A DNA stretch of 32,000 nucleotides from Candidatus Iainarchaeum sp. (lineage in GTDB: Archaea > Iainarchaeota > Iainarchaeia > Iainarchaeales > DTGL01): positions 1-32,000 of the forward strand of contig JAVYME010000007.1 in NCBI GenBank assembly GCA_038736825.1, given 5' to 3'. Shown here piece by piece: positions 2,837 to 32,000 of the stretch (position 1 is the first letter of the stretch; each line of letters begins with the position of its first letter). A model generated the notes under the pieces. That model had not been told where the DNA came from. It ran no database searches and saw only the letters and a list, made by a program, of their open reading frames with translations. A program made the translations under genes and the position numbers.

Positions 2837-5785
2837 ATGCAATGCTTGGTTTTTTTTTGCGCAAAGGCTTTTTTTTGTTTTTTTTCTTTTGCTTTTTTTC
2901 CTGTAATCGCTCAATCTACTGTTGATTCTGGGGTTGTTGTTGCGCAAAGGTTTGGTTTGGACAGGGTTTTGCTGGAATGGGATGTGAATGCGATAACTCC
3001 CACTATGTGTGATCCTTTGTTTGTTGTGGGAGAGAGTGGTTTTTTTTGTGATGCAACCCAGTTTTCTATAATGCTTTCCAAGCGTCTTGTGTTGGAGCCT
3101 GACTTGAATGAGTTTGAGGTTTTGCTGTTGGCGGATAATTATGGGGGTTCTTTTAGGGAGGCTTTTTCTGGTTTTTATTCTGGGCGTCTTTTTTTGGGTG
3201 GCAGGGTTGATGTTTCCAAGTGGTTTTTTTTGAATAGTCCTGGGCGGGCTGGCTTGTACAGGGTTTTTTTGGATTCTAATGAGGGTGGTTTTTTTGTTAG
3301 GTTTGTTTTGGTGGAGGACTTGAATGGCTTGGATTCCAGGTTGGGCACTCGTTTTTCTGAGAATCCGTTTTTTGGTTTGGCTTTTGATGCTTTTCCTTTT
3401 GATGGTGAAAGGGATTTTGGTTTGACTGGAAAGGGTGAGGTTTTTTATTTGAATGATGTTTCACGGCTTCCTGTTGCGGTGAATGATTCTTCTGGGCTTG
3501 AGGTTGAGTCTGGAAAGACTTTTGCGGATACTGCTTCTGGTTTGGTTTTGGGTTTTGATTTGAAGTCAAGGGTTTTGAGGTTTAATCGTTCTGTTCCGTC
3601 TGTTGTTTCTTTGCATTTGCGTGAGAGTGGTTCTTTTACTGGTTTTTATTCTTTGGCTGATTTGTCTGGCAGGGTTTTTTCTCGCGATTTTTTTGGGGAT
3701 AGGGTTTTTTTGTTGGATTGGAGTGGTTCTGATGGGGTTTTTAGGGATGTTTTTTTGGATAGGGTTGCTTCTGGTTTGAGGTGTGATGGTTGGAGTGAGA
3801 GTTTGCCTTCTGGCAAGCTGGTTGTTTCTCCCGGGGTTTCTGATTCTTTGTCTTTTCATTCTGTTGTTTTTTTGCCTGAAGGGGTTGTTTTGAGGTGGTT
3901 GTGTGTTTCTGGTGATGCGTTTGTGGAGTTGCGTTCTTTTGCTGGTGGTGTTAGTGGTTTTTATTCTGGTGTGAGGAATGGTTTTGTTTCTTCTGGGCGT
4001 TTGTTGTCTGTTTCTTTGCCGGCTGGTTCTTTTGAGGGGGTTTTTTCTTTGAGGGCTGTTTTGGGGGAGGTTGTTGCTGGAAGAGTGAGGGTTTTGTCTG
4101 AACCGGAAAAGGGTTTGTTTGCTTTGTTTTGGAATGAAAAGGCTTTCAGGGAACTGGTGGTAACAGGAGAAAAGCCGGAAGATGAACCGGTTGCAGAGGA
4201 AATAAGCAGTTATGCTGCACTTCCAGCAGGTGGAGCGAATGCACCCTATGTTTTCAAGGTTTACTTGCAACCATTGTCTCCAACCGGCAGGGAGGACATT
4301 TATTGTTTTGCTTCAGGAATAGATCCAAACAATTCACCCTTAAATTTTATTTTCACTTGGAGGCTTAACGGAATTGAAGTTCAAAAATACCAAATTAATG
4401 GCGCTTTGAGTGGCGCTGAACGCACTCAATCAAGCATGCTTTCCAAGCAAAAACTGGCTGAAAGAAGAGCGAGCACTGGAACAGTGATTGAATGCGAGGT
4501 TATAGTCAACAATGGCAGAACCCAAAGCCATCCGGTTACAGCCAAAGCAACCATTGGACAGGAAAACCCAGTCGGGCAAAGCTCTGGCGCTCTCCCTGAT
4601 TCTGATGGTGATGGAATTCCAGATGCAAGCGATAGATGCCCTTATGAAAAAGGCACTTTAGCCAACCAAGGCTGCCCTTCAAGCACTCCATCACTGCCAG
4701 CTTCTCCGTTGACGCCATCACAGTTGACACCATCACAAAACACTGTTTCCTTTTATTTCCTTCCAATTGACTGGGAAGGCTCTCAGCAATCCTTTGAAAC
4801 CGAAGTGAACGGGCAACTCGCTTTTTTGCTGGAAAAATCCGGCATTAAAAGCGATCCAGCCTGTTCAGGGTTTTCCTTTCAAAAAACAATCCTTCCAATG
4901 ACTCTAGCAGAACAATGCGGTTTGAGCTTGAAAACCACAATCAATTACAATGACTTTTTGTCAAAAGTTTATAGTTGCCTTCAAAGACAGGGAATTCCCT
5001 TAAACAATAAAAAAACCATTTTTGCAGGTTTAAGCAATTCAACCTCCAGCAGCTTAGTTGTTTGCTCTTACACGGCTTCAGGCTCTCAGTGCTTTAACTG
5101 GTTTGGTTTTCACGATCGCCTTGGAGGTTCAGGGTTTGGCACAAGCGTTTTGATTGCACTGGCTTCAACAGTTGGAAGCCCAAAACTTGGCTTTGACCTG
5201 TTCTCTCACGAAGTAGGGCACAGCCTGGGCTTTTGCGAGCAATACTCTTATTCTAAAAATGTGGCTCAACAGAGTGCCAGGCAGTTCAGCAGTTTTGGTG
5301 GTTGCACAAACAAGTATCCCGGGAGTGGGGAAACACTGTATGCCTTGCTTTTTTCCCAGTCCTATGAAAAATGCCCTGGTGAAACAATTCCAACCAATTG
5401 CCCTGAATTTGTGCAAATAAGCTATGTGAGTGCATACGATTTGGGTTTAACCACCACTCCAACCGAGGACAGCACTAAAGCCAAGGTTTTGTCATCAGAG
5501 TTAAGGGAAAAAATAAGATTGCATTGCTCTAAATTTGCTTCCCCAGACAAATGCATTTCAGATTATGTTTCAAGGCAGAACTGGTCTCTGCCTGATGTGG
5601 ACTGCCTTGGCAGAAGGTTTTTTGTCGCCGGAAAGGAAAACAGGGACATTATGGGGGTAGTGTCCAAAATCCAACAGGAAATGGCAATGGTTTTTACAAG
5701 AGCAGGCTATTCTTCAAACCCAGAGCGTTCCTTTGACTGTTTTGAAAAAGAACAATTCAAAAAACAGTGGTGTTTGGGGGGCTGA
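2837..5785 (+). CDS. Secreted modular HExxH zinc-metallopeptidase-like protein, paralog A2 (982 aa)
   Basis: ATG at 2837 is preceded by GAGGT, and the N-terminus is hydrophobic and signal-like. The first ~430 codons are extremely G+T-rich. An Ig-like module follows (IYCFASGIDPNN..FTWRLNGIEV..IECEVIVNNG), then a TSP3-like motif (DSDGDGIPDASDRCPYE), a P/S/T linker, the zincin motif HEVGHSLGFCEQY and the C-terminus FDCFEKEQFKKQW. Other + frames in the skewed part are closed by TGA. Confidence 0.8.
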   Translation: MQCLVFFCAKAFFCFFSFAFFPVIAQSTVDSGVVVAQRFGLDRVLLEWDVNAITPTMCDPLFVVGESGFFCDATQFSIMLSKRLVLEPDLNEFEVLLLADNYGGSFREAFSGFYSGRLFLGGRVDVSKWFFLNSPGRAGLYRVFLDSNEGGFFVRFVLVEDLNGLDSRLGTRFSENPFFGLAFDAFPFDGERDFGLTGKGEVFYLNDVSRLPVAVNDSSGLEVESGKTFADTASGLVLGFDLKSRVLRFNRSVPSVVSLHLRESGSFTGFYSLADLSGRVFSRDFFGDRVFLLDWSGSDGVFRDVFLDRVASGLRCDGWSESLPSGKLVVSPGVSDSLSFHSVVFLPEGVVLRWLCVSGDAFVELRSFAGGVSGFYSGVRNGFVSSGRLLSVSLPAGSFEGVFSLRAVLGEVVAGRVRVLSEPEKGLFALFWNEKAFRELVVTGEKPEDEPVAEEISSYAALPAGGANAPYVFKVYLQPLSPTGREDIYCFASGIDPNNSPLNFIFTWRLNGIEVQKYQINGALSGAERTQSSMLSKQKLAERRASTGTVIECEVIVNNGRTQSHPVTAKATIGQENPVGQSSGALPDSDGDGIPDASDRCPYEKGTLANQGCPSSTPSLPASPLTPSQLTPSQNTVSFYFLPIDWEGSQQSFETEVNGQLAFLLEKSGIKSDPACSGFSFQKTILPMTLAEQCGLSLKTTINYNDFLSKVYSCLQRQGIPLNNKKTIFAGLSNSTSSSLVVCSYTASGSQCFNWFGFHDRLGGSGFGTSVLIALASTVGSPKLGFDLFSHEVGHSLGFCEQYSYSKNVAQQSARQFSSFGGCTNKYPGSGETLYALLFSQSYEKCPGETIPTNCPEFVQISYVSAYDLGLTTTPTEDSTKAKVLSSELREKIRLHCSKFASPDKCISDYVSRQNWSLPDVDCLGRRFFVAGKENRDIMGVVSKIQQEMAMVFTRAGYSSNPERSFDCFEKEQFKKQWCLGG
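4115..4173 (+). repeat. 59-nt perfect direct repeat, copy 2 (identical to 1-59)
   Basis: See copy 1. This copy sits on the transition from G+T-skewed to ordinary composition inside A2. Confidence 0.95.
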
Positions 5786-5788
5786 AAA

Positions 5789-6493
5789 ATGCGCAAAACG
5801 TTTTTGGTTTTTGCTTTTTTTCTTTTTTCAGTCCAAGTTTTTGCAGTAAATCCGGAAAAATGCCTTTTTTTCAGGGTTTTTTGGGAGAAAGGCGATTACC
5901 AGATAGACAGCTTGCGAATTGTAATGGATTTTCCGCTGGAAGTAGACCCTGAAGGCGATTACTTGGTAAAATTGCTTGATTCAAAGGGCACTGCATTATA
6001 CCAGCACAAAACAAAAAAGGCCAGCACTGTTTTAGAGCAATCCATCGAACCATTGAACGGTGAAACCACTGACCAAAACATTGTAATAGATTTTGACACA
6101 ATTGCTGGAACCCAGAGAGGGCAAATGTTTTTCCTCTTGCCTTATACTGAAAACGCGAAAAAAATTTCCTTTGAGCATGGCACTGCGGTTTTGGCTGAAG
6201 CGGATTTAAGCGTTTTATGCCAAGCAAATGGAAAGTGTGAAAGCCAGGAAAACTTTTTGTCTTGCCCGCAAGACTGTCCCTTGAGCGAAAAGGACAATTA
6301 TTGTTATGCTTTCACAGACGGAACCTGTGATCCGGACTGCATTGAAGGCTTTGATTCTGATTGCACTAAAAGCAATGGAGTGAAAAAAGAACAGTTTTCC
6401 CTTGAACAAGTTTATTTTATTGGAGTGGTGGTTTTAGCCTTTGCTTTAATGGTTTCATACAATGTTTTAAGGAAAAGAACCGGAAAAAAATAA
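5789..6493 (+). CDS. Small membrane-anchored secreted protein with 8-Cys module, paralog B2 (partner of A2)
   Basis: ATG lies 3 nt after the A2 stop. The signal peptide is MRKTFLVFAFFLFSVQVFA. The Cys module reads CESQENFLSCPQDCPLSEKDNYCYAFTDGTCDPDCIEGFDSDC. The TM helix is YFIGVVVLAFALMVSY followed by a basic tail. Nucleotide stretches agtggtggttttagcctttg and catacaatgttttaaggaaaa are identical to B1. Confidence 0.85.
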   Translation: MRKTFLVFAFFLFSVQVFAVNPEKCLFFRVFWEKGDYQIDSLRIVMDFPLEVDPEGDYLVKLLDSKGTALYQHKTKKASTVLEQSIEPLNGETTDQNIVIDFDTIAGTQRGQMFFLLPYTENAKKISFEHGTAVLAEADLSVLCQANGKCESQENFLSCPQDCPLSEKDNYCYAFTDGTCDPDCIEGFDSDCTKSNGVKKEQFSLEQVYFIGVVVLAFALMVSYNVLRKRTGKK

Positions 6494-8041: not shown

Positions 8042-9409
8042 TTAAGCAGATTCTTTTTTCTTTGCTATTGATTTGTGGAGTTTTTCAAGTTTTTCCAGGG
8101 CTTTCTCGCGCTCTTCCTTTTTTTTATCCGCCTCTTTCTCTTCAGGTTTTTTTTCCTCTTCTTTTTTTGGTTCTTTTGCTGGTTCCATTGATTGTGGTGC
8201 TGGGGCTTCTTCTTTTTTCAATTCCTCTTTTTTTGTTTTTTTTGCCTTTTTTTTGCCTTTTTTGCCCTCTTCTTTGAGTTTCTTTTCTTTTTCCAATCCA
8301 ATTATTTCATCCACTGCTTTCAAGAACAAGCCAGCTGTCCAAGCAAAAGGGCTTTCGCTTTTCAACAAAAAAGAATCAATCGGCCTTTTATGCTTGTCAA
8401 AGATTTCATTGGTAACACAATAATTGTTTATTTGCCATGCAAGCCTGTCCAATTCCATTAGTGCTTGTTCTTTTAAGCCGATTTTGTTGAGAGCAATTGC
8501 GTTCATGCAACCAATCCAAGGCCAAGAGAACCCGTTATGGTAATAATAGGCTTTTGTTGGCAGTATTAATAGTGAGGGCACTACCTTCCAAAAAGGATAG
8601 GGCGGATAATTGGTTTTCATGGGCACTTGGTTTAAGCCGTGTTTTTCAATGAATTCCTCTATTTTTAGCGCTCTATCGCTTGTGGCAATGCCCCATGCGA
8701 CTGCAAGCACGTTTCCATCGCTTGAAAAATAATTGTGTTTTGTTAATCCAATCCAGTCAGTGTAATAATAGTTTTCCCAAAACTTTATGTTTAGGGCAAG
8801 CCTTGTTGTTTCAGCCCTTTTCTCGTATTCTGTTGAAATCATTTTCACTCCAAGCCAGTCTGCGAGAAAGGCGAATTCTTTGAGTGCATAATAATAACAG
8901 CAGTTGGAGTAAAGCACTTTGCCGTGCTTTAATATGGTGTCAGCCCAGTTCGAGAAAAAGCCCTCTTCTATTAAGCCGTCCTTGTCGCGATCCATTTTGC
9001 AAAGCCATTCCATTGAAAGCGAAACCTTTTTGAAATTGGATTCTATGAAGACTTTGTCATCGCTTTTCCTTGCATAGTCTGCAAGTGCGATTACAAAGAG
9101 TGCATTTGAGTCCACTGGTGGTGGAAAAAAAGCAAAGGGCTTGTATTTTGGCTTTAATTTTAGGGAAATTATTGCTGGAAGAAGCCCTTTTTTGTCCTGC
9201 AAGTCCAAAAACAATTGCAGGTTGTTTTTTGATTGCTTGAAATCGCCTATAGCGTTTGCCCCAAGAGAGGCAAAAAACGAATCCCTTGCCCAGTATTGCT
9301 GGAAATGCCCTCTTCCAGCCAAAATGCCGGATTCAGTATAGCATTCCCGCAAGTCTCTTTTAGCGATTTCTATTGCGTCAGCAATGGCTTTCTCCAAGCA
9401 AAAAACCAT
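8042..9409 (-). CDS. Six-hairpin (alpha/alpha)6 glycoside hydrolase, glycogen-debranching-enzyme (GDE_C)/GH63-like, with K/E-rich C-terminal tail
   Basis: The motif GRGHFQQYWARDSFFASLGA and W/Y-rich helical repeats are typical of amylo-alpha-1,6-glucosidase-like barrels. The last ~85 aa are low-complexity K/E/P sequence. Confidence 0.6.
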   Translation of the reverse strand: MVFCLEKAIADAIEIAKRDLRECYTESGILAGRGHFQQYWARDSFFASLGANAIGDFKQSKNNLQLFLDLQDKKGLLPAIISLKLKPKYKPFAFFPPPVDSNALFVIALADYARKSDDKVFIESNFKKVSLSMEWLCKMDRDKDGLIEEGFFSNWADTILKHGKVLYSNCCYYYALKEFAFLADWLGVKMISTEYEKRAETTRLALNIKFWENYYYTDWIGLTKHNYFSSDGNVLAVAWGIATSDRALKIEEFIEKHGLNQVPMKTNYPPYPFWKVVPSLLILPTKAYYYHNGFSWPWIGCMNAIALNKIGLKEQALMELDRLAWQINNYCVTNEIFDKHKRPIDSFLLKSESPFAWTAGLFLKAVDEIIGLEKEKKLKEEGKKGKKKAKKTKKEELKKEEAPAPQSMEPAKEPKKEEEKKPEEKEADKKKEEREKALEKLEKLHKSIAKKKESA

Positions 9410-26327: not shown

Positions 26328-27023
26328 TCAGTTTTTGCCAGCATTAAACTTTACCCTAATATGCGAGCCATCACAAAACGGCTTGTTCTTTGAAGCACCA
26401 CACCTGCACAAAGTAACACGATTCCTTTCCTCATAATATGTGCCATCTGAAGATTTTATTGGAACAAAGCCCTTAACCCAGATTGGACCAGAGCATTTTG
26501 CCTGCGGGTCCTCCACCAACCCAATAGAAGGCTTGAATTTTGGCTCTATTGCCCTACCGGTTTTTTTATGCCATACCACTAGCCTTCCAGAAGGGCAATT
26601 GCAAGCGGTTTCAATTGCCAGTTTCCTTTTTTTAACATTGCCTGACAGTTCAACCTGCTTCCAAGTGCCACCAGCCCTATGGCAAAACCTTGCAACAGCA
26701 CACAATTTTGGAGCATCAGTCAAATCAATGCCAGGACCAAAAAACCTTTGCGCTTGCGCCAAATACCGTTTCTTCAAGGCAGTTTCCATTCCATTAAACC
26801 CAATTGTTTGGTGCGAGCCATCACAAAAAGGCTTGTTCTTTGAAGCACCGCACCTGCAAAGCGCAAAAGAATCCCTTTTCTCAAACTTTTCACCAGCAAT
26901 CCATTTTTCAGGCTCATTATCCCTGCCAATTCCAATGATTTCCTTCCTTAAAGGCAAGCCGCCAAAAACAAGGTATGGACCGTTCTCTGCAATCACAATT
27001 TCAGCCTTTTTCCCGCCAGCCAT
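26328..27023 (-). CDS. CDGSH-type iron-sulfur domain protein (two CDGSH motifs)
   Basis: CRCGASKNKPFCDGSH occurs twice, with a central C-rich segment (ACNCPSGRL). Confidence 0.85.
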   Translation of the reverse strand: MAGGKKAEIVIAENGPYLVFGGLPLRKEIIGIGRDNEPEKWIAGEKFEKRDSFALCRCGASKNKPFCDGSHQTIGFNGMETALKKRYLAQAQRFFGPGIDLTDAPKLCAVARFCHRAGGTWKQVELSGNVKKRKLAIETACNCPSGRLVVWHKKTGRAIEPKFKPSIGLVEDPQAKCSGPIWVKGFVPIKSSDGTYYEERNRVTLCRCGASKNKPFCDGSHIRVKFNAGKN

Positions 27024-27110: not shown

Positions 27111-28547
27111 TTACACGCGGGTTGCAATCCAATCTGTTACTCCGCCAGTGCCAGCTCCACCACTCATATAATTCCAGCTAGGATCAATAGTCCCAGAAAT
27201 GGTTGCAGTATAACTGTTCTCGTATGTGATGGTCATCGTTATTGTATTCCCTGTAACTTGACCAGTCATTGTCCAATTGTAAGGGGAGTTGTAAGGCGGT
27301 CCTGAACCTGCTGGATATCCTCCGGTTCCACTAATTGTTCCATCCGGATTCTGCGTCACAACAATCATGTCGTGAATGTAGGCTCCTGAGTTGACACTAA
27401 GCAACCATGTTCCAGTAACTTTGCCAGCGTTTGGGTTTACCAGTCTAGTGAATTCTTCCACTACGCTTTGGCTGCAACCAAATTTCCTGTGCCCTTCCAT
27501 GTTCCCGTAAAGCGCTGGATTGTACGCCTGCAATAAGTCCAATATCTGAGAACAACTGCAACCATTAGTGCTAGCCAAAGTGAAAGGCGATTGTGCCGCA
27601 TAAAAGGTTGTCTTGCCCTTCACATTCTTTGAAGACAGCGTAGTGAAATAGTCATCCCAGTTATAGGTGTCTGTCCACATTAGCCTGTTCACGCCCAAAT
27701 AGCCCGCAGTCCCTATGAATCTGCCGTCAATCTTCCAAGGATCATTTGCTGTTGTACTGCAATACCAATTGCACACGTGCTGGTCTATTGTGCCATCGCA
27801 ATCGTTATCCAAAGTATCGCAGACCTCGGTTGCATCCGGGTTTACATTTGGGTTGGAGTCATCACAGTCAGAGCTATCTTCGACAAAGCCCTCACCGCAC
27901 TCACCACAGAACTCTTTTGAATTGTTGGGATCTCCAAATCCATCTTCGTCAGAGTCCGCATAGCAAGTGACAGAAGCCACTTCATCATAAGATATCTCTG
28001 CCTTGTAGATTAACCCAGTTGGATTGACTTCAGGATCGGTCGTAGGGTATGCATAGTTCCTGACAATAAACTGCAACTTGTTAGAACCAGCCTGCAATCC
28101 AGTCAAATTGTAACTCAAAATTGTATTCCATTCCTGGTTGTCCACAAATGGTCCTTGGACTTTGCCATCACTGCCAATCAAAGCACCATTCAAGTAAACC
28201 TCTTCAGCATTATCAGAAGTAACACTCACAATGTTCCCTGAAAGATTAGTCACACAAGACGGAAGCACTATCTCGCGCTCAAACAACCTCCAACTATCAT
28301 TCTGTGCATCTTCTGTATAGTAAGCGCTTGAAATCCAATAAGCACCATCAATAGTCGGCCAAAGAGGATGTTTCCATGTCACAACTGCATTGTTTGAAGT
28401 TCCCCAGTCTGTAGAATCTATTTCTGCATAATGGTCTATTGGACCGTAAACCAGTGTGTCTGTATCACTGACAATTGTCATTGTTGCAGCCATAGCAGTA
28501 GCGGTCAGCAAGACAGCTATTGCCATTATTCCCAATATTTTTTTCAT
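27111..28547 (-). CDS. Secreted protein with a MopE-like putative metal-binding Cys/Asp motif
   Basis: GGAGG lies 8 nt upstream of the ATG and the signal peptide is ILGIMAIAVLLTATAMA. The segment CYADSDEDGFGDP...DCDDSNPNVNPDATEVCDTLDNDCDGTIDQ matches the DNDCDG-type putative metal-binding motif. Confidence 0.7.
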   Translation of the reverse strand: MKKILGIMAIAVLLTATAMAATMTIVSDTDTLVYGPIDHYAEIDSTDWGTSNNAVVTWKHPLWPTIDGAYWISSAYYTEDAQNDSWRLFEREIVLPSCVTNLSGNIVSVTSDNAEEVYLNGALIGSDGKVQGPFVDNQEWNTILSYNLTGLQAGSNKLQFIVRNYAYPTTDPEVNPTGLIYKAEISYDEVASVTCYADSDEDGFGDPNNSKEFCGECGEGFVEDSSDCDDSNPNVNPDATEVCDTLDNDCDGTIDQHVCNWYCSTTANDPWKIDGRFIGTAGYLGVNRLMWTDTYNWDDYFTTLSSKNVKGKTTFYAAQSPFTLASTNGCSCSQILDLLQAYNPALYGNMEGHRKFGCSQSVVEEFTRLVNPNAGKVTGTWLLSVNSGAYIHDMIVVTQNPDGTISGTGGYPAGSGPPYNSPYNWTMTGQVTGNTITMTITYENSYTATISGTIDPSWNYMSGGAGTGGVTDWIATRV

Positions 28548-28794: not shown

Positions 28795-31011
28795 TTAAGG
28801 ACTCGAGGTCTTGTCTTCGTCGCAATGCCCTGGACCAATATAGCCCTCGTTATAGGAAGCCAACAGCGAGGCAGTGCTAGTGAATTGCTTTCTCAATGAA
28901 TCGTTTGCCTTCAAAGCCCCAATTTGTGCCGGCGTATATGTGCTGAACCAAGTGTCTGCTTTGGCTATTGCCTCACTTACGCTGGCAGGCGCGTCAGCCC
29001 CATTCAAAATGTTAAGCCTTGCAGCCATGAACTGGTGAGCCAATTGATAGTAGACATTGCCCTTTACTGGAGTCCAAAACACTTTATACCAGGTTTGACC
29101 GCTCAAATAGAACGGAGTGCTTGCCCCAGTTGGTGCCAGCAAAGCCCAAGTGTCATCGTATGGTGCTTTTCCGAACTCTGAATGGGTTTTCCAATAGCCT
29201 TGAGTCAAAGTGCAGCCCTGTATGCATTCCACGTTCACCAAAACAGACCAGCTGTCTTCGCCCTTGGTTTCAGTGTCATTTGTAATGAATTCTGCAGTGT
29301 TGTCTATTTTGTGTTCGCCGCACCCTTCAGGGTCAGAGTATGGACCGATTGTCCAAGTGTATTTAAAGGTTTTTGGAGCTTGTCCAGCGCAAACCGAGCC
29401 CAAAGTTCCCTTTAATGTGTCTGTGACTTCAATGCATTCATCTGTTTCTGTTGTCGGGCTGCCAAAGGTTATGTTTGCAGTTCCACTGTAATCTGTTGTT
29501 CCGCTTGGAGTGGGAGAGCCATTGAATGGATGGGAATAGTTTTGTTGTGTTGCTGTGGCAGTGTTTGTTCTAGTAGTGCTGTCTGGAAGTGTTGCGCTAT
29601 AAGTGCAGGTGAGTGTTTGCCCTGCTGGCAGACTGTATGGGAATGTTTCCGGGCAATTTACTGTTGCTGCTCCAACTCCACTAATTGCGTCTGTTACGCT
29701 ATTGATTGTTGCCGGAATTGTGGCTGGATTGCTTACTGTTATGTTGCCTGAAACGCTCCAACCAGAATCTGTATGGGTTTTGTCCACTTTCACTTCATAG
29801 TTTAGAATGTAAGTTTCCCCTGGTGCAAGAGTCAACTCGGTTTTGTCAGCTTTCTTGTCAATAGTCCAATTGTATTTTCTTGTGAACCCTGTACTGGCAG
29901 TTTTTGCAATTGAAAGCTTGTAGCAATCAACTGTAACGCTTGCACTGTCCTGTTGTCTTGTTTGAGTTATTGTTGCAGTGTTGTTGATTGTTTTGCTTCC
30001 ATGATTGTTGGAATAGGTTATTCCACTGCAATCAAAGGTTTTGTTGTAAGTTACACTGCCAGAATTGTTAAACAGCCATGGGCCGCCTTGCGTGTCAGTA
30101 ACTTCTATTGAAGAATTTGAAGGCCGTGGGCTTACCCCGCTAAAATTTATTTCTTTGGAGGCACTGTTTCCGCCAACATCTCCAGTAGTGGTGACTGTGG
30201 CAGTGTTTGTTCTAGTAGTGCTGTCTGGAAGTGTTGCACTGTAAGTGCAGGTGAGTGTTTGCCCTGCTGGCAGACTGTATGGGAATGTTACTGGGCAATT
30301 GACTGTTGCTGCTCCAAATCCACTAATTTCGTCTGTTACATTGGTTATTTGCGCTGAAGCGTATTGTGCTGGATTTGTGATTGTTATTTGTCCAATAACA
30401 GAATAAGTTGTGGATCCAAGGGTTTTTGTCACTGTAATGGTGTACTGTGATTGTCCAGAATCACCGTCAAACAAAACCCAAGCATCAGGTGTAACACTCT
30501 TGTCAATAGTCCAAACATAGTTTTGCTCAATGTGCGGATAAACATTCTTTGAAACCGAAAGGTTTACTTGTTCATAGTTGACAGAAACAGCTTTGTTGCC
30601 ATTTGAGGGACTGTCAAAACCGTCGTTCAGTGTGCCATTCCAAATGACTGTTGCAGTCCATGCCCCTCCAACTAGGTCTGCAGTTGATGCAACATAATCA
30701 GCACTTCCAACAAAGCTTGTTTCTGTTGGATTTGGATAGTTGTTTGGTCCAAAGGTGTGCTCTGTGCCGTCTGGCAATTTTAATGTTAGTGTTCGGTTGG
30801 TTATGTCGCAACCATCGCTTGATGATGGGTTTCCAGCGCTAACTGTAAAGGTTATTGTTTGTCCTGGTTGTGCTGAGGCTGTGCTTCTTGCAATGTTTAC
30901 AACGCTGTTGTCTGCGTTACAGCCTGGCGGTGATGCCGGGTCTGCGGCCATAACGCTTGGTGTTGCCAGCAACAAGGCAATTGCTGCCAGCAATAATATT
31001 TTTTTGTTCAT
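28795..31011 (-). CDS. Large secreted surface protein with DUF11/TIGR01451-like conserved repeat domains
   Basis: GGAGG precedes the ATG and the signal peptide is ILLLAAIALLLATPSVMA. It has two ~214-aa repeat units, each containing GAATVNCP.TFPYSLPAGQTLTCTYSATLPDSTTRTNTAT. The C-terminal domain carries CTLTQGYWKTH. Confidence 0.8.
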   Translation of the reverse strand: MNKKILLLAAIALLLATPSVMAADPASPPGCNADNSVVNIARSTASAQPGQTITFTVSAGNPSSSDGCDITNRTLTLKLPDGTEHTFGPNNYPNPTETSFVGSADYVASTADLVGGAWTATVIWNGTLNDGFDSPSNGNKAVSVNYEQVNLSVSKNVYPHIEQNYVWTIDKSVTPDAWVLFDGDSGQSQYTITVTKTLGSTTYSVIGQITITNPAQYASAQITNVTDEISGFGAATVNCPVTFPYSLPAGQTLTCTYSATLPDSTTRTNTATVTTTGDVGGNSASKEINFSGVSPRPSNSSIEVTDTQGGPWLFNNSGSVTYNKTFDCSGITYSNNHGSKTINNTATITQTRQQDSASVTVDCYKLSIAKTASTGFTRKYNWTIDKKADKTELTLAPGETYILNYEVKVDKTHTDSGWSVSGNITVSNPATIPATINSVTDAISGVGAATVNCPETFPYSLPAGQTLTCTYSATLPDSTTRTNTATATQQNYSHPFNGSPTPSGTTDYSGTANITFGSPTTETDECIEVTDTLKGTLGSVCAGQAPKTFKYTWTIGPYSDPEGCGEHKIDNTAEFITNDTETKGEDSWSVLVNVECIQGCTLTQGYWKTHSEFGKAPYDDTWALLAPTGASTPFYLSGQTWYKVFWTPVKGNVYYQLAHQFMAARLNILNGADAPASVSEAIAKADTWFSTYTPAQIGALKANDSLRKQFTSTASLLASYNEGYIGPGHCDEDKTSSP
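29553..29697 (-). repeat. Intragenic 145-nt repeat, copy 1 (~95% identical to 30195-30339)
   Basis: Hand alignment at a fixed offset of 642 nt gives 7 mismatches in 145 nt. Confidence 0.9.
30195..30339 (-). repeat. Intragenic 145-nt repeat, copy 2
   Basis: See copy 1. Confidence 0.9.
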
Positions 31012-31027
31012 TTTTTTTTCCTCCTTT

Positions 31028-31043
31028 GTTTTTTTTTGATTAA
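31028..31043 (-). promoter_or_regulatory. Conserved 16-nt leader/promoter motif TTAATCAAAAAAAAAC followed by AAGGAGG
   Basis: It is identical to 28565-28580. ATATATT lies immediately upstream on the - strand. Confidence 0.4.
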
Positions 31044-31105
31044 TATATTGTGTTTCTTAAATCACTGAAAAAAGTAATTTAAAGTGATGTATTTCTGGGT
31101 TGTAA

Positions 31106-31196
31106 TTTGTTTGTTTGTTGTTTGTTTATTTTTTGTTTTTTTTGTTGTTTTTTTGTTTATTTTTTGCATTTTTTGTTTTATTTTTTTTCTTTTTTG
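31106..31196. repeat. Low-complexity T/G (- strand A/C) tract, degenerate (GTTT)n
   Basis: tttgtttgtttgttgtttgtttattttttgttttttttt... is almost free of A and C on the + strand. Confidence 0.8.
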
Positions 31197-31223
31197 AAGT
31201 AATTGGCAGTTTAGTTGGTGTTT

Positions 31224-31370
31224 TCAGTTTGTTTTTTTTAGTGCGGTTTTTTCGCTGTATTCTTTTCTTTCTGTGAATTCTTGGGTTTTTCCTATGTTCC
31301 ATTGCTGTACTGGCCTGTAGTAGCCGCATACTCTGGAGTATACTTCTGTTTTGTTTTGGCATTTTTTCAT
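31224..31370 (-). CDS. 48-aa mini-protein resembling the glycyl-radical C-terminus of class III (anaerobic) ribonucleotide reductase NrdD
   Basis: Hand translation of the - strand gives MKKCQNKTEVYSRVCGYYRPVQQWNIGKTQEFTERKEYSEKTALKKTN. It contains the glycyl-radical type motif RVCGY followed by RPV..WN.GK..EF.ERK.Y. Its ATG (31370-31368) forms an ATGA overlap with the stop of the rubrerythrin-like gene. It is not in the ORF track because it is under 60 aa. Confidence 0.55.
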   Translation of the reverse strand: MKKCQNKTEVYSRVCGYYRPVQQWNIGKTQEFTERKEYSEKTALKKTN

Positions 31371-31891
31371 TTTGCTCCCCTTTCCTCTGACAAGTGCAAG
31401 TGGTCGGATTCAACTTCCACGAGTGCTTTGAATATTTGTTTTATGCGTGGGTGGGTTGATTGTTTTGCTGCGGTTTTGTAGAATTCTATTGCTCGGCTTT
31501 CTCTTGCGTGGGATTCGTTCAGGTTTTGCTTGTAGTCTGTGGTGCATTCGGCTGTTCCTTTTGGGGTTTCGTTTAGTTTTAGTATTTTTTTCCAAATGCT
31601 TGCGTGTTCTGTTTCTATTTTTGCGAGTGCTTTGAATAGTTTTTTTGCTTCTGGTTCTGGGGTTTTTTCTGCAGCACAATAGTAGAAGGTGGAATTGCTT
31701 GTTTCGACTTGGAGTGCGTGTTCTGCGTTTGTTTTGTCTTTTTCGTTTAATTCAATGTTGAATTCTGGCTTGGCTTTTTTGAAGGGTTTTATGTGTTTGC
31801 CGTTTGCTCCGCAGAACGGGCAGTTGGTTGGGTTTTTGTATCCTATGTATGGGTCTCCGCAGATTTCGCAAATCCAGAGTTTTGCTTTCAT
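31367..31891 (-). CDS. Rubrerythrin-family diiron protein with N-terminal rubredoxin-like zinc ribbon (reverse rubrerythrin layout)
   Basis: Start is placed at Met14 (MKAKLWICEICG), preceded by AAAGGAGG. The rubredoxin-like part is CEICG...CPFCG. Two E...ExxH pairs are present (QVETSN..IETEH and ARESRAIEFY..VESDH). Confidence 0.75.
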   Translation of the reverse strand: MKAKLWICEICGDPYIGYKNPTNCPFCGANGKHIKPFKKAKPEFNIELNEKDKTNAEHALQVETSNSTFYYCAAEKTPEPEAKKLFKALAKIETEHASIWKKILKLNETPKGTAECTTDYKQNLNESHARESRAIEFYKTAAKQSTHPRIKQIFKALVEVESDHLHLSEERGAK

Positions 31892-32000
31892 TTTTTTTTC
31901 CTCCTTTTTTTTTAATTGCAGTTTTTGCATTTTCCTTCAAAGATTATTTTTACTGTTTCGGGCGTGAAGTTTTTTGAGTCGAATTTTTCTATTAATTGTT

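Follow-up and report, generated by a model that had tools for sequence, protein, structure and literature searches.

A free-standing NrdD-type glycyl-radical tail in an oxidative-stress gene cluster of Candidatus Iainarchaeum: a candidate replacement part for class III ribonucleotide reductase

Can the radical-bearing end of the anaerobic (class III) ribonucleotide reductase (RNR), NrdD, be a separate and exchangeable protein? The question is raised by a 48-codon open reading frame (ORF) in a 32,000-nucleotide stretch of DNA from Candidatus Iainarchaeum sp. (assembly GCA_038736825.1, contig JAVYME010000007.1, positions 1 to 32,000; this whole stretch is the window in what follows), which specifies the extreme C-terminus of NrdD (here called the tail) and overlaps the end of a gene for a rubrerythrin (Rbr)-like protein. 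Oxygen destroys glycyl radical enzymes by cleaving them at the radical glycine. According to a 2026 review, spare parts have so far been identified for formate lyases alone, and whether other glycyl radical enzymes possess them has yet to be established. Our answer, to which we assign a probability of roughly 0.6, is that the tail would act in trans as a glycyl-radical subunit induced by stress to replace a lost one, and so would be for NrdD what GrcA/YfiD is for pyruvate formate-lyase. An initial annotation, made from the DNA letters, had offered two readings of the ORF, a spare part for NrdD and the last remnant of a lost nrdD gene. The first now has strong comparative support, with its function deduced from context, and the second is refuted; missing from that annotation were the split form of NrdD in this lineage, the upstream regulator and wider operon, and the abundance of tails in phages.

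The ORF and its two key codons are placed as follows.

31224 to 31370 including the stop codon, minus strand: 48-residue NrdD-type glycyl-radical-domain peptide (the tail), an ATG-start ORF with a match to NRDD
31323 to 31325, minus strand: codon of Gly16, the predicted radical glycine in RVCGY, read from the sequence
31359 to 31361, minus strand: codon of Cys4, position read from the sequence, putatively the fourth zinc ligand given in trans to the NrdD body

Translation of the ORF yields MKKCQNKTEVYSRVCGYYRPVQQWNIGKTQEFTERKEYSEKTALKKTN, exactly as first quoted. The Pfam model PF13597 (NRDD) matches it with E 4.8e-11 and 42.5 bits (gathering cut-off 26.2), residues 3-38 of the tail aligning with profile positions 526-562 of 562, that is, with the extreme C-terminus of class III RNR, as had been proposed. 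Three NCBIfam NrdD equivalogs match through their own last ~37 positions (E 6e-10 to 4e-9), at scores far below their full-length cut-offs (36.6 bits against 326 in the case of TIGR02487). Matches at E <= 1 in Pfam or NCBIfam are confined to NrdD models, the Gly_radical (PF01228) and GrcA models giving none; by sequence, the tail is an NrdD fragment and stands outside the GrcA or pyruvate formate-lyase (PFL)-type family. A search of PDB sequences returns weak matches to the C-terminus of Thermotoga maritima NrdD (E 0.14, residues 610-644). Gly16 aligns with the invariant glycine of the family and with the RIVGY motif of the T. maritima enzyme (PDB 4COI), and the tail holds both the RxxG(Y/F) radical motif and the downstream RPV..WN.GK signature. 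A comparison of nine free tails shows ten residues (E, V, Y, S, R, G, Y, Y, R, P) to be the same in all of them. Cys4 is the sole upstream zinc-type cysteine (Cys15 adjoins the radical glycine), so that a complete four-ligand zinc ribbon is absent, the other three ligand positions (C-P-x-H ... C-P) being on NrdD bodies; absent too from these 48 residues is the ten-stranded alpha/beta barrel with its finger-loop cysteine. The radical glycine, single zinc-type cysteine and missing barrel of the initial annotation are thus all upheld, and the window contains no body elsewhere. Probably, then, the ORF functions as a gene, its product being a free-standing copy of the class III RNR C-terminal glycyl-radical domain.

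Is so short an ORF a gene at all? Three adjoining elements bear on this.

31367 to 31891, minus strand: reverse-rubrerythrin-type gene of 174 residues, start MKAKLW, with an N-terminal CxxC..CxxC ribbon and a diiron ferritin-like domain
31367 to 31370, minus strand: ATGA overlap of the rbr-like stop codon TGA and the tail start codon ATG, read from the sequence
31375 to 31387, minus strand: purine-rich Shine-Dalgarno-like stretch GAGGAAAGGGGAG, 5 nucleotides ahead of the tail ATG

The upstream gene had been described as encoding a diiron rubrerythrin-family protein that begins in a CxxC...CxxC ribbon and is joined to the tail by ATGA. This description is correct: PF02915 (rubrerythrin/ferritin-like diiron domain) matches with E 2.6e-15, the ribbon resembles rubredoxin-like PF21349 (E 1.4e-4, under its cut-off), and a GGAGG Shine-Dalgarno sequence lies at 31900-31904. 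The protein was scanned against one genome per GTDB species, yielding 62 loci, the closest of which (L016, 77% identical, and L017, 72%; genomes JAWALG01 and JAOAJX01) are from Candidatus Iainarchaeum metagenome-assembled genomes (MAGs). In both, the stop codon of the rbr-like gene overlaps the start of a 49-50-residue tail orthologue, again as ATGA, so that the pair which the initial annotation suggested looking for in related genomes is present. The operon order in both is Fur, rbr-like gene, tail, peroxiredoxin (Prx); the Fur gene of L017 matches PF01475 with E 1.5e-21, and the peroxiredoxin of L016 matches PF00578 with E 1e-34. The genes beyond the L017 operon are homologues of window ORFs 27111-28547 and 26328-27023, and the region is therefore syntenic. 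Comparison of the tails of the window, L016, L017 and the nearest body-linked locus (see below), also suggested at the outset, gives a nonsynonymous divergence (dN) of 0.14-0.25 (0.20-0.25 with the orthologues of L016 and L017) at saturated synonymous sites (dS).

These data dispose of the idea that the tail is the last trace of a decayed nrdD, or a chance ORF. Its great shortness and the lack of nrdD or nrdG within the 32-kb window would suit that idea: queries with NrdD body and NrdG return nothing better than E 0.36 by tblastn, so that NrdD barrel and nrdG are both missing from the window, and none of its frames contains a decayed nrdD. The same emptiness means that the flanking frames hold no nrdD debris, and the frame, start codon and ATGA coupling are kept in two relatives, dN is far below dS, and homologous free tails occur in hundreds of clusters. 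The remnant or pseudogene reading is rejected on these grounds and retains almost no probability; as judged from its sequence, the tail is a conserved gene, not debris.

The ATGA overlap implies translational coupling of the rbr-like gene and the tail. Since the Shine-Dalgarno-like stretch GAGGAAAGGGGAG is not kept in L016 or L017, the coupling should matter more for the tail. Conservation of this junction in three genomes also invites the thought that the tail serves rubrerythrin itself, as a frameshift fusion or as its partner in oxygen sensing, and is unconnected with NrdD. A frameshift fusion was rejected because the junctions (GCAAAATGA, GCAAAATGA, GCAATATGA) have no slippery sequence in common. 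Elsewhere, moreover, the tail follows Fur or precedes Rbr, and the same type of peptide is the natural partner of tail-less NrdD bodies, all of which makes a rubrerythrin partner very improbable. ATGA junctions link rbr-like gene and tail in L016 and L017, Fur and tail in L020, and body and tail in L078 and L079.

What, then, would such a tail belong to? When 5.8 billion proteins were searched through a word index, the window peptide gave eight matches, all of 50-81 residues. The closest of these (P0001, 85% identical) sits between a tail-less NrdD body, to which it is ATGA-coupled, and nrdG, and the NrdD ORF ahead of it ends in ...CPVHGYLSGKHFTCPVEVGEVRKREVEA and a stop codon; P0011 is a further example of the order body, tail, nrdG. 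In a GC-rich relative, found in six samples, an ATP-cone NrdD of 671 residues ending in ...CPEHGYIRGEHFACP... is followed by 25 nucleotides containing AAGGAGG, a 63-residue tail, and nrdG. When the 27 closest NrdDs were fetched and their ends compared, 16 (656-691 residues) were found to be tail-less, ending right after ...CPVHGY..GKH..CP, and 11 (706-734 residues) to be fused, continuing from this CP through an 8-12-residue linker into CGKxTEVYSRVVGYYRPV... The two forms are intermixed at 64-88% identity, a pattern implying that nrdD has been split, repeatedly or reversibly, in the linker between its third and fourth zinc-ligand positions. The free tail starts at the fourth of these (Cys4 in the window, where MKKC aligns with the MKKC or MTKC of L010 and L079). 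From this break pattern, and from the four-cysteine zinc site that Logan et al. in 2003 reportedly described in T4 NrdD, we infer that the tail may complete the zinc site of the body in trans.

A tail gene directly follows the tail-less body in all five loci with readable downstream DNA (L004, L010, L078, L079, L240), and nrdG comes after it. The window tail, close as it is to these body-linked tails, is arranged otherwise: the gene upstream of it is rbr-like, and no nrdG follows. Taken together, the sequences suggest that NrdD in Iainarchaeota and other DPANN archaea often consists of a ~660-residue catalytic body and a ~50-60-residue tail, encoded along with nrdG. With NrdD commonly split in the lineage, a free tail would be the normal form of a subunit, and not just an extra of the GrcA kind. 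Large RNR phylogenies treat the class III radical domain solely as the C-terminal part of NrdD (PMC9531940, PMC9669993), and full-text literature searches, which leave out most subscription journals, turned up no account of an NrdD radical domain that is free or split off. In one split locus (L078, 4600-7609, on JANQNE010000004.1) nrdD is preceded by nrdR, and the tail is followed by a gene for an 80-residue glutaredoxin/NrdH-like protein (weak PF00462 match), which hints at a thiol-based reductant, not formate.

A spare part, as opposed to an obligatory subunit, should exist beside a radical domain that the genome already has, and this arrangement is found in relatives. On JANQNE010000004.1 (Nanoarchaeia), one strand carries nrdR, a tail-less 691-residue NrdD, an ATGA-coupled first tail (59 residues), nrdG about 8 kb on and, another ~6 kb beyond, a Fur gene with a second tail (43 residues). 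The two tails are 70% identical (dN 0.19, dS 1.36, omega 0.14) and are nearer to each other than to the tails of other lineages. On two metagenome contigs (L193 and L227) a full-length NrdD with its own tail is followed by nrdG, and between the two is encoded a 92-residue protein composed of a CxxC...CxxC ribbon and a tail, the radical domain of which is identical in protein sequence to that of the resident NrdD. In the DNA, the copies diverge at 1 of 93 coding nucleotides in L193 and at 9 of 72 in L227, where all differences are synonymous (dN 0, dS 1.28). Read from these sequences, selection, or gene conversion, holds the free domain as a perfect copy of the resident one, which is what a replacement part needs. 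L193, L227 and JANQNE010000004.1 thus resemble the GrcA case, in which a small protein duplicates a domain that its enzyme retains in the same genome.

Identity with the domain of NrdD itself is also what one would expect of a competitor for the same socket. The tail might be a protective cap or decoy that, free of a radical, displaces activated tails or titrates NrdG and so shuts the enzyme off against self-destruction by oxygen, and its co-expression with peroxide-detoxifying genes suits shut-down as well as repair. A pure blocker, however, needs neither the radical glycine nor the activase-recognition motif, the whole of which is strictly kept in the stress-linked copies, and GrcA, so far the one precedent, does undergo activation and supports catalysis (PMC8683613). 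We consider a cap or decoy improbable and return to the replacement subunit.

The ribbon-bearing proteins of L193 and L227 belong to a second free-tail architecture of 85-100 residues, with its own complete CxxC...CxxC ribbon ahead of the radical motif. Examples come from phages, from Fur operons and from the interval that separates a full-length nrdD from nrdG (L145, L149, L157 and L159 of viral origin; L193, L208, L222, L224 and L227 from metagenomes; L027 at 8565-8852).

What ties the window tail to stress is its neighbourhood. Two further features complete this.

31912 to 32000 (the last 89 bases of the window), minus strand: 3' end of a probable Fur/PerR-family regulator gene, ending in ...KIIFEGKCKNCN and a stop codon, from its reading frame and its resemblance to relatives
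31012 to 31223, no strand: non-coding spacer, T-rich on the plus strand, at the site of the peroxiredoxin gene of relatives

The KIIFEGKCKNCN frame matches a Fur C-terminus weakly (tblastn E 0.13) because just 28 codons of it are inside the window; in L016 and L017 this place is taken by PF01475 FUR genes, which end in ...CVEGLCKKC... The window thus presents the 3' end of a Fur-like gene, the rbr-like gene and the tail in succession. With its translation tied to that of a reverse rubrerythrin, and with a Fur/PerR-type regulator gene ahead of both, the tail would be made alongside peroxide-detoxifying enzymes upon exposure to oxygen or peroxide. L016 and L017 carry an AhpC/TSA peroxiredoxin at the spot that corresponds to the spacer, in which no peroxiredoxin remnant was detected. 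A low-complexity T-rich tandem tract (31105-31196; periods 11, 20 and 31) occupies part of the interval between the tail stop and the next gene. This next gene (28795-31011, minus strand) specifies a 738-residue secreted protein with an internal duplication (VNCP(V/E)TFPYSLPAGQTLTCTYSATLPDSTTRTNTAT twice) and stands 3' of the tail where relatives carry other genes. A sigma-70 promoter and terminator scan of 30900-32000, with a model ill-suited to archaea, gave nothing above shuffle expectation.

Association of tails with genes for Fur, rubrerythrin, peroxiredoxin or desulfoferrodoxin (Dfx) recurs in five different gene orders.

Fur-rbr-tail-Prx: L016 and L017, Iainarchaeia
Fur-ATGA-tail-Rbr-rbr: L020, Nanoarchaeia MAG
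tail-tail-Rbr-rbr (tandem tails): L027, Woesearchaeota MAG
Rbr-rbr-Dfx with a divergent 58-residue tail 1.5-2 kb on: L039, L075 and L044, Undinarchaeota and UBA543
Fur-(Zn-ribbon+tail)-Prx-Rbr-Dfx: L208, metagenome contig; with it goes L224, also a metagenome contig, in which a ferritin-like gene comes after Fur-(Zn-ribbon+tail)

All the stress-cluster tails that were scanned pass the NRDD threshold. Chance proximity of a 150-nucleotide gene in a ~1-Mb genome comes, by our estimate, to well below 1% per genome, for loci that are not phylogenetically independent. The tail-bearing rbr loci are archaeal in seven cases of seven; roughly half of the 62 record titles name archaea. Inverted repeats resembling Fur or Per boxes (TAATAATCATTTGCA, TGATAATCGTTTTCA, TAGTAATCATTATCA and similar) are seen 5-60 nucleotides ahead of the fur genes that head tail operons.

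~9569 to 9583 in L016, upstream of the fur gene: Fur/Per-box-like repeat
~9574 to 9588 in L017, upstream of the fur gene: Fur/Per-box-like repeat
~8504 to 8518 in L020, upstream of the fur gene: Fur/Per-box-like repeat
L208 and L224, upstream of the fur genes: Fur/Per-box-like repeats

These candidate boxes, of the TAATAATCATT type, have 2-4 mismatches to TTATAATNATTATAA in an AT-rich background and are for this reason weak evidence.

Several considerations weigh against a stress-induced replacement subunit. A tail lies within about 2.5 kb in just 7 of the 62 rbr-anchored loci. Pfam places the regulator no more closely than in the Fur family, its likely PerR identity and the presumed induction by peroxide being read from its neighbours; the promoter falls outside the window, and the peroxiredoxin gene of the relatives is absent from it. 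For the source genome the evidence is the 32-kb window, and the putative NrdD body, second tail and nrdG are known from relatives. The proposed roles of all family members rest on sequence and gene context, and an AlphaFold2 model of a fused homologue (P0012; 27-sequence alignment) has a mean predicted local distance difference test score (pLDDT) of 63, with residues 626-696 below 50, too poor for a judgement on linker or docking. Finally, the window tail is nearer to the body-linked P0001 (85% identical) than to the rbr-linked tails of L016 and L017 (74-77%). Given that split NrdD is common in the clade, this last point would suit a genome whose only tail, an obligatory NrdD subunit, had been relocated from the nrdD-nrdG operon into the stress operon. 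That relocation is disfavoured because every tail-less body examined retains its adjacent tail (five of five, as noted above), and the one genome in which both regions are readable carries two; we regard it as unlikely.

The best-supported explanation is accordingly that NrdD of this lineage is a naturally two-piece enzyme and that the window holds a stress-operon copy of its radical subunit. It is built on homology, conservation, gene orders, the two tails of one genome and the extra tails beside full-length NrdD. Docking, activation, PerR control and rescue are modelled on the known chemistry of NrdD, NrdG and GrcA, as follows. The tail would dock into the barrel of the body, with Cys4 completing a shared zinc site and clamping the tail in place. 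NrdG and S-adenosylmethionine would then abstract a hydrogen from Gly16, placing the radical there, and the radical would pass to the active-site cysteine of the finger loop, so that nucleotides could be reduced. Should oxygen break the chain at Gly16, the detachable 48-residue peptide would be the sole loss. Peroxide would relieve repression by the Fur/PerR-type regulator, and rubrerythrin (along with peroxiredoxin in the relatives) and fresh tail would be made together by virtue of the ATGA coupling; with anoxia restored, NrdG could arm the new tails on surviving bodies. Where NrdD is fused, a free tail would need to push the leftover stub aside, as GrcA does on cleaved PFL (PMC8683613, PMC13450708).

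How widespread are free tails? When a profile made from nine of them was run against 1.84 billion cluster representatives, 4855 sequences matched with E <= 1e-3, and 2154 of these with E <= 1e-10; both counts include ordinary NrdDs. The best 150 of the 4855 are all proteins of 48-234 (mostly 50-100) residues, and in most of them the match begins within the first 20 residues. Among the best 80 loci of 373 matching IMG/VR stretches, 73 have no NrdD body within 6 kb of the tail, and nrdG is present in just 4. The best 80 metagenome loci comprise ordinary fused NrdDs (roughly half), splits into body and tail (~17) and tails with no body on the contig (~22). GenBank phage records account for two matches only, the viral signal coming from the metagenomic contigs of IMG/VR. 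Phage contexts of the tail include a Mu-like prophage, a site beside DNA ligase, and the replication modules of phage-like metagenome contigs. The prophage (L001, a 57.5-kb contig of Logan SRR30949876, with DDE transposase, Mu Gam and GemA) is integrated beside yidC, jag and rpmH, and after its 81-residue tail comes a protein that contains a DNA polymerase beta thumb domain. In two IMG/VR loci (L109, at 6058-6060, and L110) TAA replaces the conserved Gln codon of RPVQQWN (read as ...RPV, stop, QWNKGK), which may be either a nonsense mutation or stop-codon recoding.

PHROGs and NCBIfam contain no model for free tails, and automatic JGI names for them are 'ribonucleoside-triphosphate reductase' or 'hypothetical protein', some of the ORFs being left unnamed. 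As a gene family, and by their context, the tails are well supported, and we infer their biochemical role. A wider proposal, evenly poised in our estimate, is that class III RNR has widespread autonomous glycyl-radical cofactors, tails of 45-100 residues that would act in trans on tail-less or oxygen-cleaved NrdD, be induced in DPANN archaea through Fur/PerR-type regulators together with rubrerythrin and peroxiredoxin, and be carried widely by phages to sustain deoxynucleoside triphosphate synthesis in their hosts.

The tails are concrete spare-part candidates for the enzyme by which anaerobes produce their DNA precursors, and the peptide is small enough to synthesise. If the proposal is right, PFL would cease to be the only glycyl radical enzyme known to have a spare-part system, and there would be an RNR that naturally comes in two pieces, its radical subunit being exchangeable. 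The proposal would show how anaerobes with tiny genomes, apparently reliant on a single oxygen-sensitive RNR, could survive transient oxygen; it would account for the many phages carrying a 50-residue NrdD fragment, and it would flag a systematic annotation gap for tail ORFs.

The rest of the window includes genes for an Orc1/Cdc6-like protein, GMP synthase, argininosuccinate synthase and argininosuccinate lyase, a gene content that, like the best matches of the rbr-like protein in Candidatus Iainarchaeum MAGs, indicates a DPANN archaeon. At 26328-27023 (minus strand), a few kb 3' of the stress operon and in synteny with L017, lies the gene of a protein that contains a CDGSH-type iron-sulfur motif twice (CRCGASKNKPFCDGSH). 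At the start of the window a two-gene cassette is present as a tandem duplicate (1-2830 and 2837-6493), each copy specifying a large secreted HExxH protein and then a membrane-anchored protein of ~235-260 residues with NFLSCPxDCPLxEKDNYC. The HExxH proteins share ...GLFALFWNEKAFRELVVTGEK, one having HELGHTFGL and the other HEVGHSLGF.

How does the proposed system compare with those already known? Clostridium acetobutylicum and other strict anaerobes have PerR-controlled operons in which a Fur-family regulator is followed by a rubrerythrin with an N-terminal rubredoxin-like domain, along with genes for peroxide and superoxide detoxification. We know of no glycyl-radical peptide described in such reverse rubrerythrin operons. 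Among RNRs, the closest parallel to the split is NrdJa/NrdJb of Pseudomonas aeruginosa, in which the C-terminal functional module, with its zinc finger, has a neighbouring gene to itself (PMC9669993). That enzyme, however, is of class II and cobalamin-dependent, its split-off part serves re-reduction and is not a radical cofactor, and no stress-operon paralogue of it is known. Full-length NrdD (phage T4; T. maritima, PDB 4COI/4U3E) has the homologous RV(C/V)GY followed by RPV..WN.GK..EF..R, whereas the tail is translated from a start codon of its own as an independent polypeptide and has just one of the four zinc ligands, the last. The PFL spare part of phage T4, Y06I, is likewise a free glycyl-radical domain that comes without an enzyme body, the pattern of most of the IMG/VR tail loci; it is PFL-type and validated, whereas the viral NrdD-type tails are known from sequence and have no PHROGs family. 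From GrcA/YfiD of E. coli the tail differs in belonging to another sequence family (NRDD, PF13597), in having 48 residues in place of 127 with no disordered N-terminal half, in the zinc site that it would share with its partner, in having a cognate enzyme that is often already split, and in its Fur/PerR-type operon. Both are nevertheless small free proteins that copy the C-terminal glycyl-radical domain of a large enzyme, and the logic of GrcA/YfiD, namely activation by the enzyme's own activase and replacement of an oxygen-cleaved domain (PMC8683613, PMC13450708), is what we propose for the tail.

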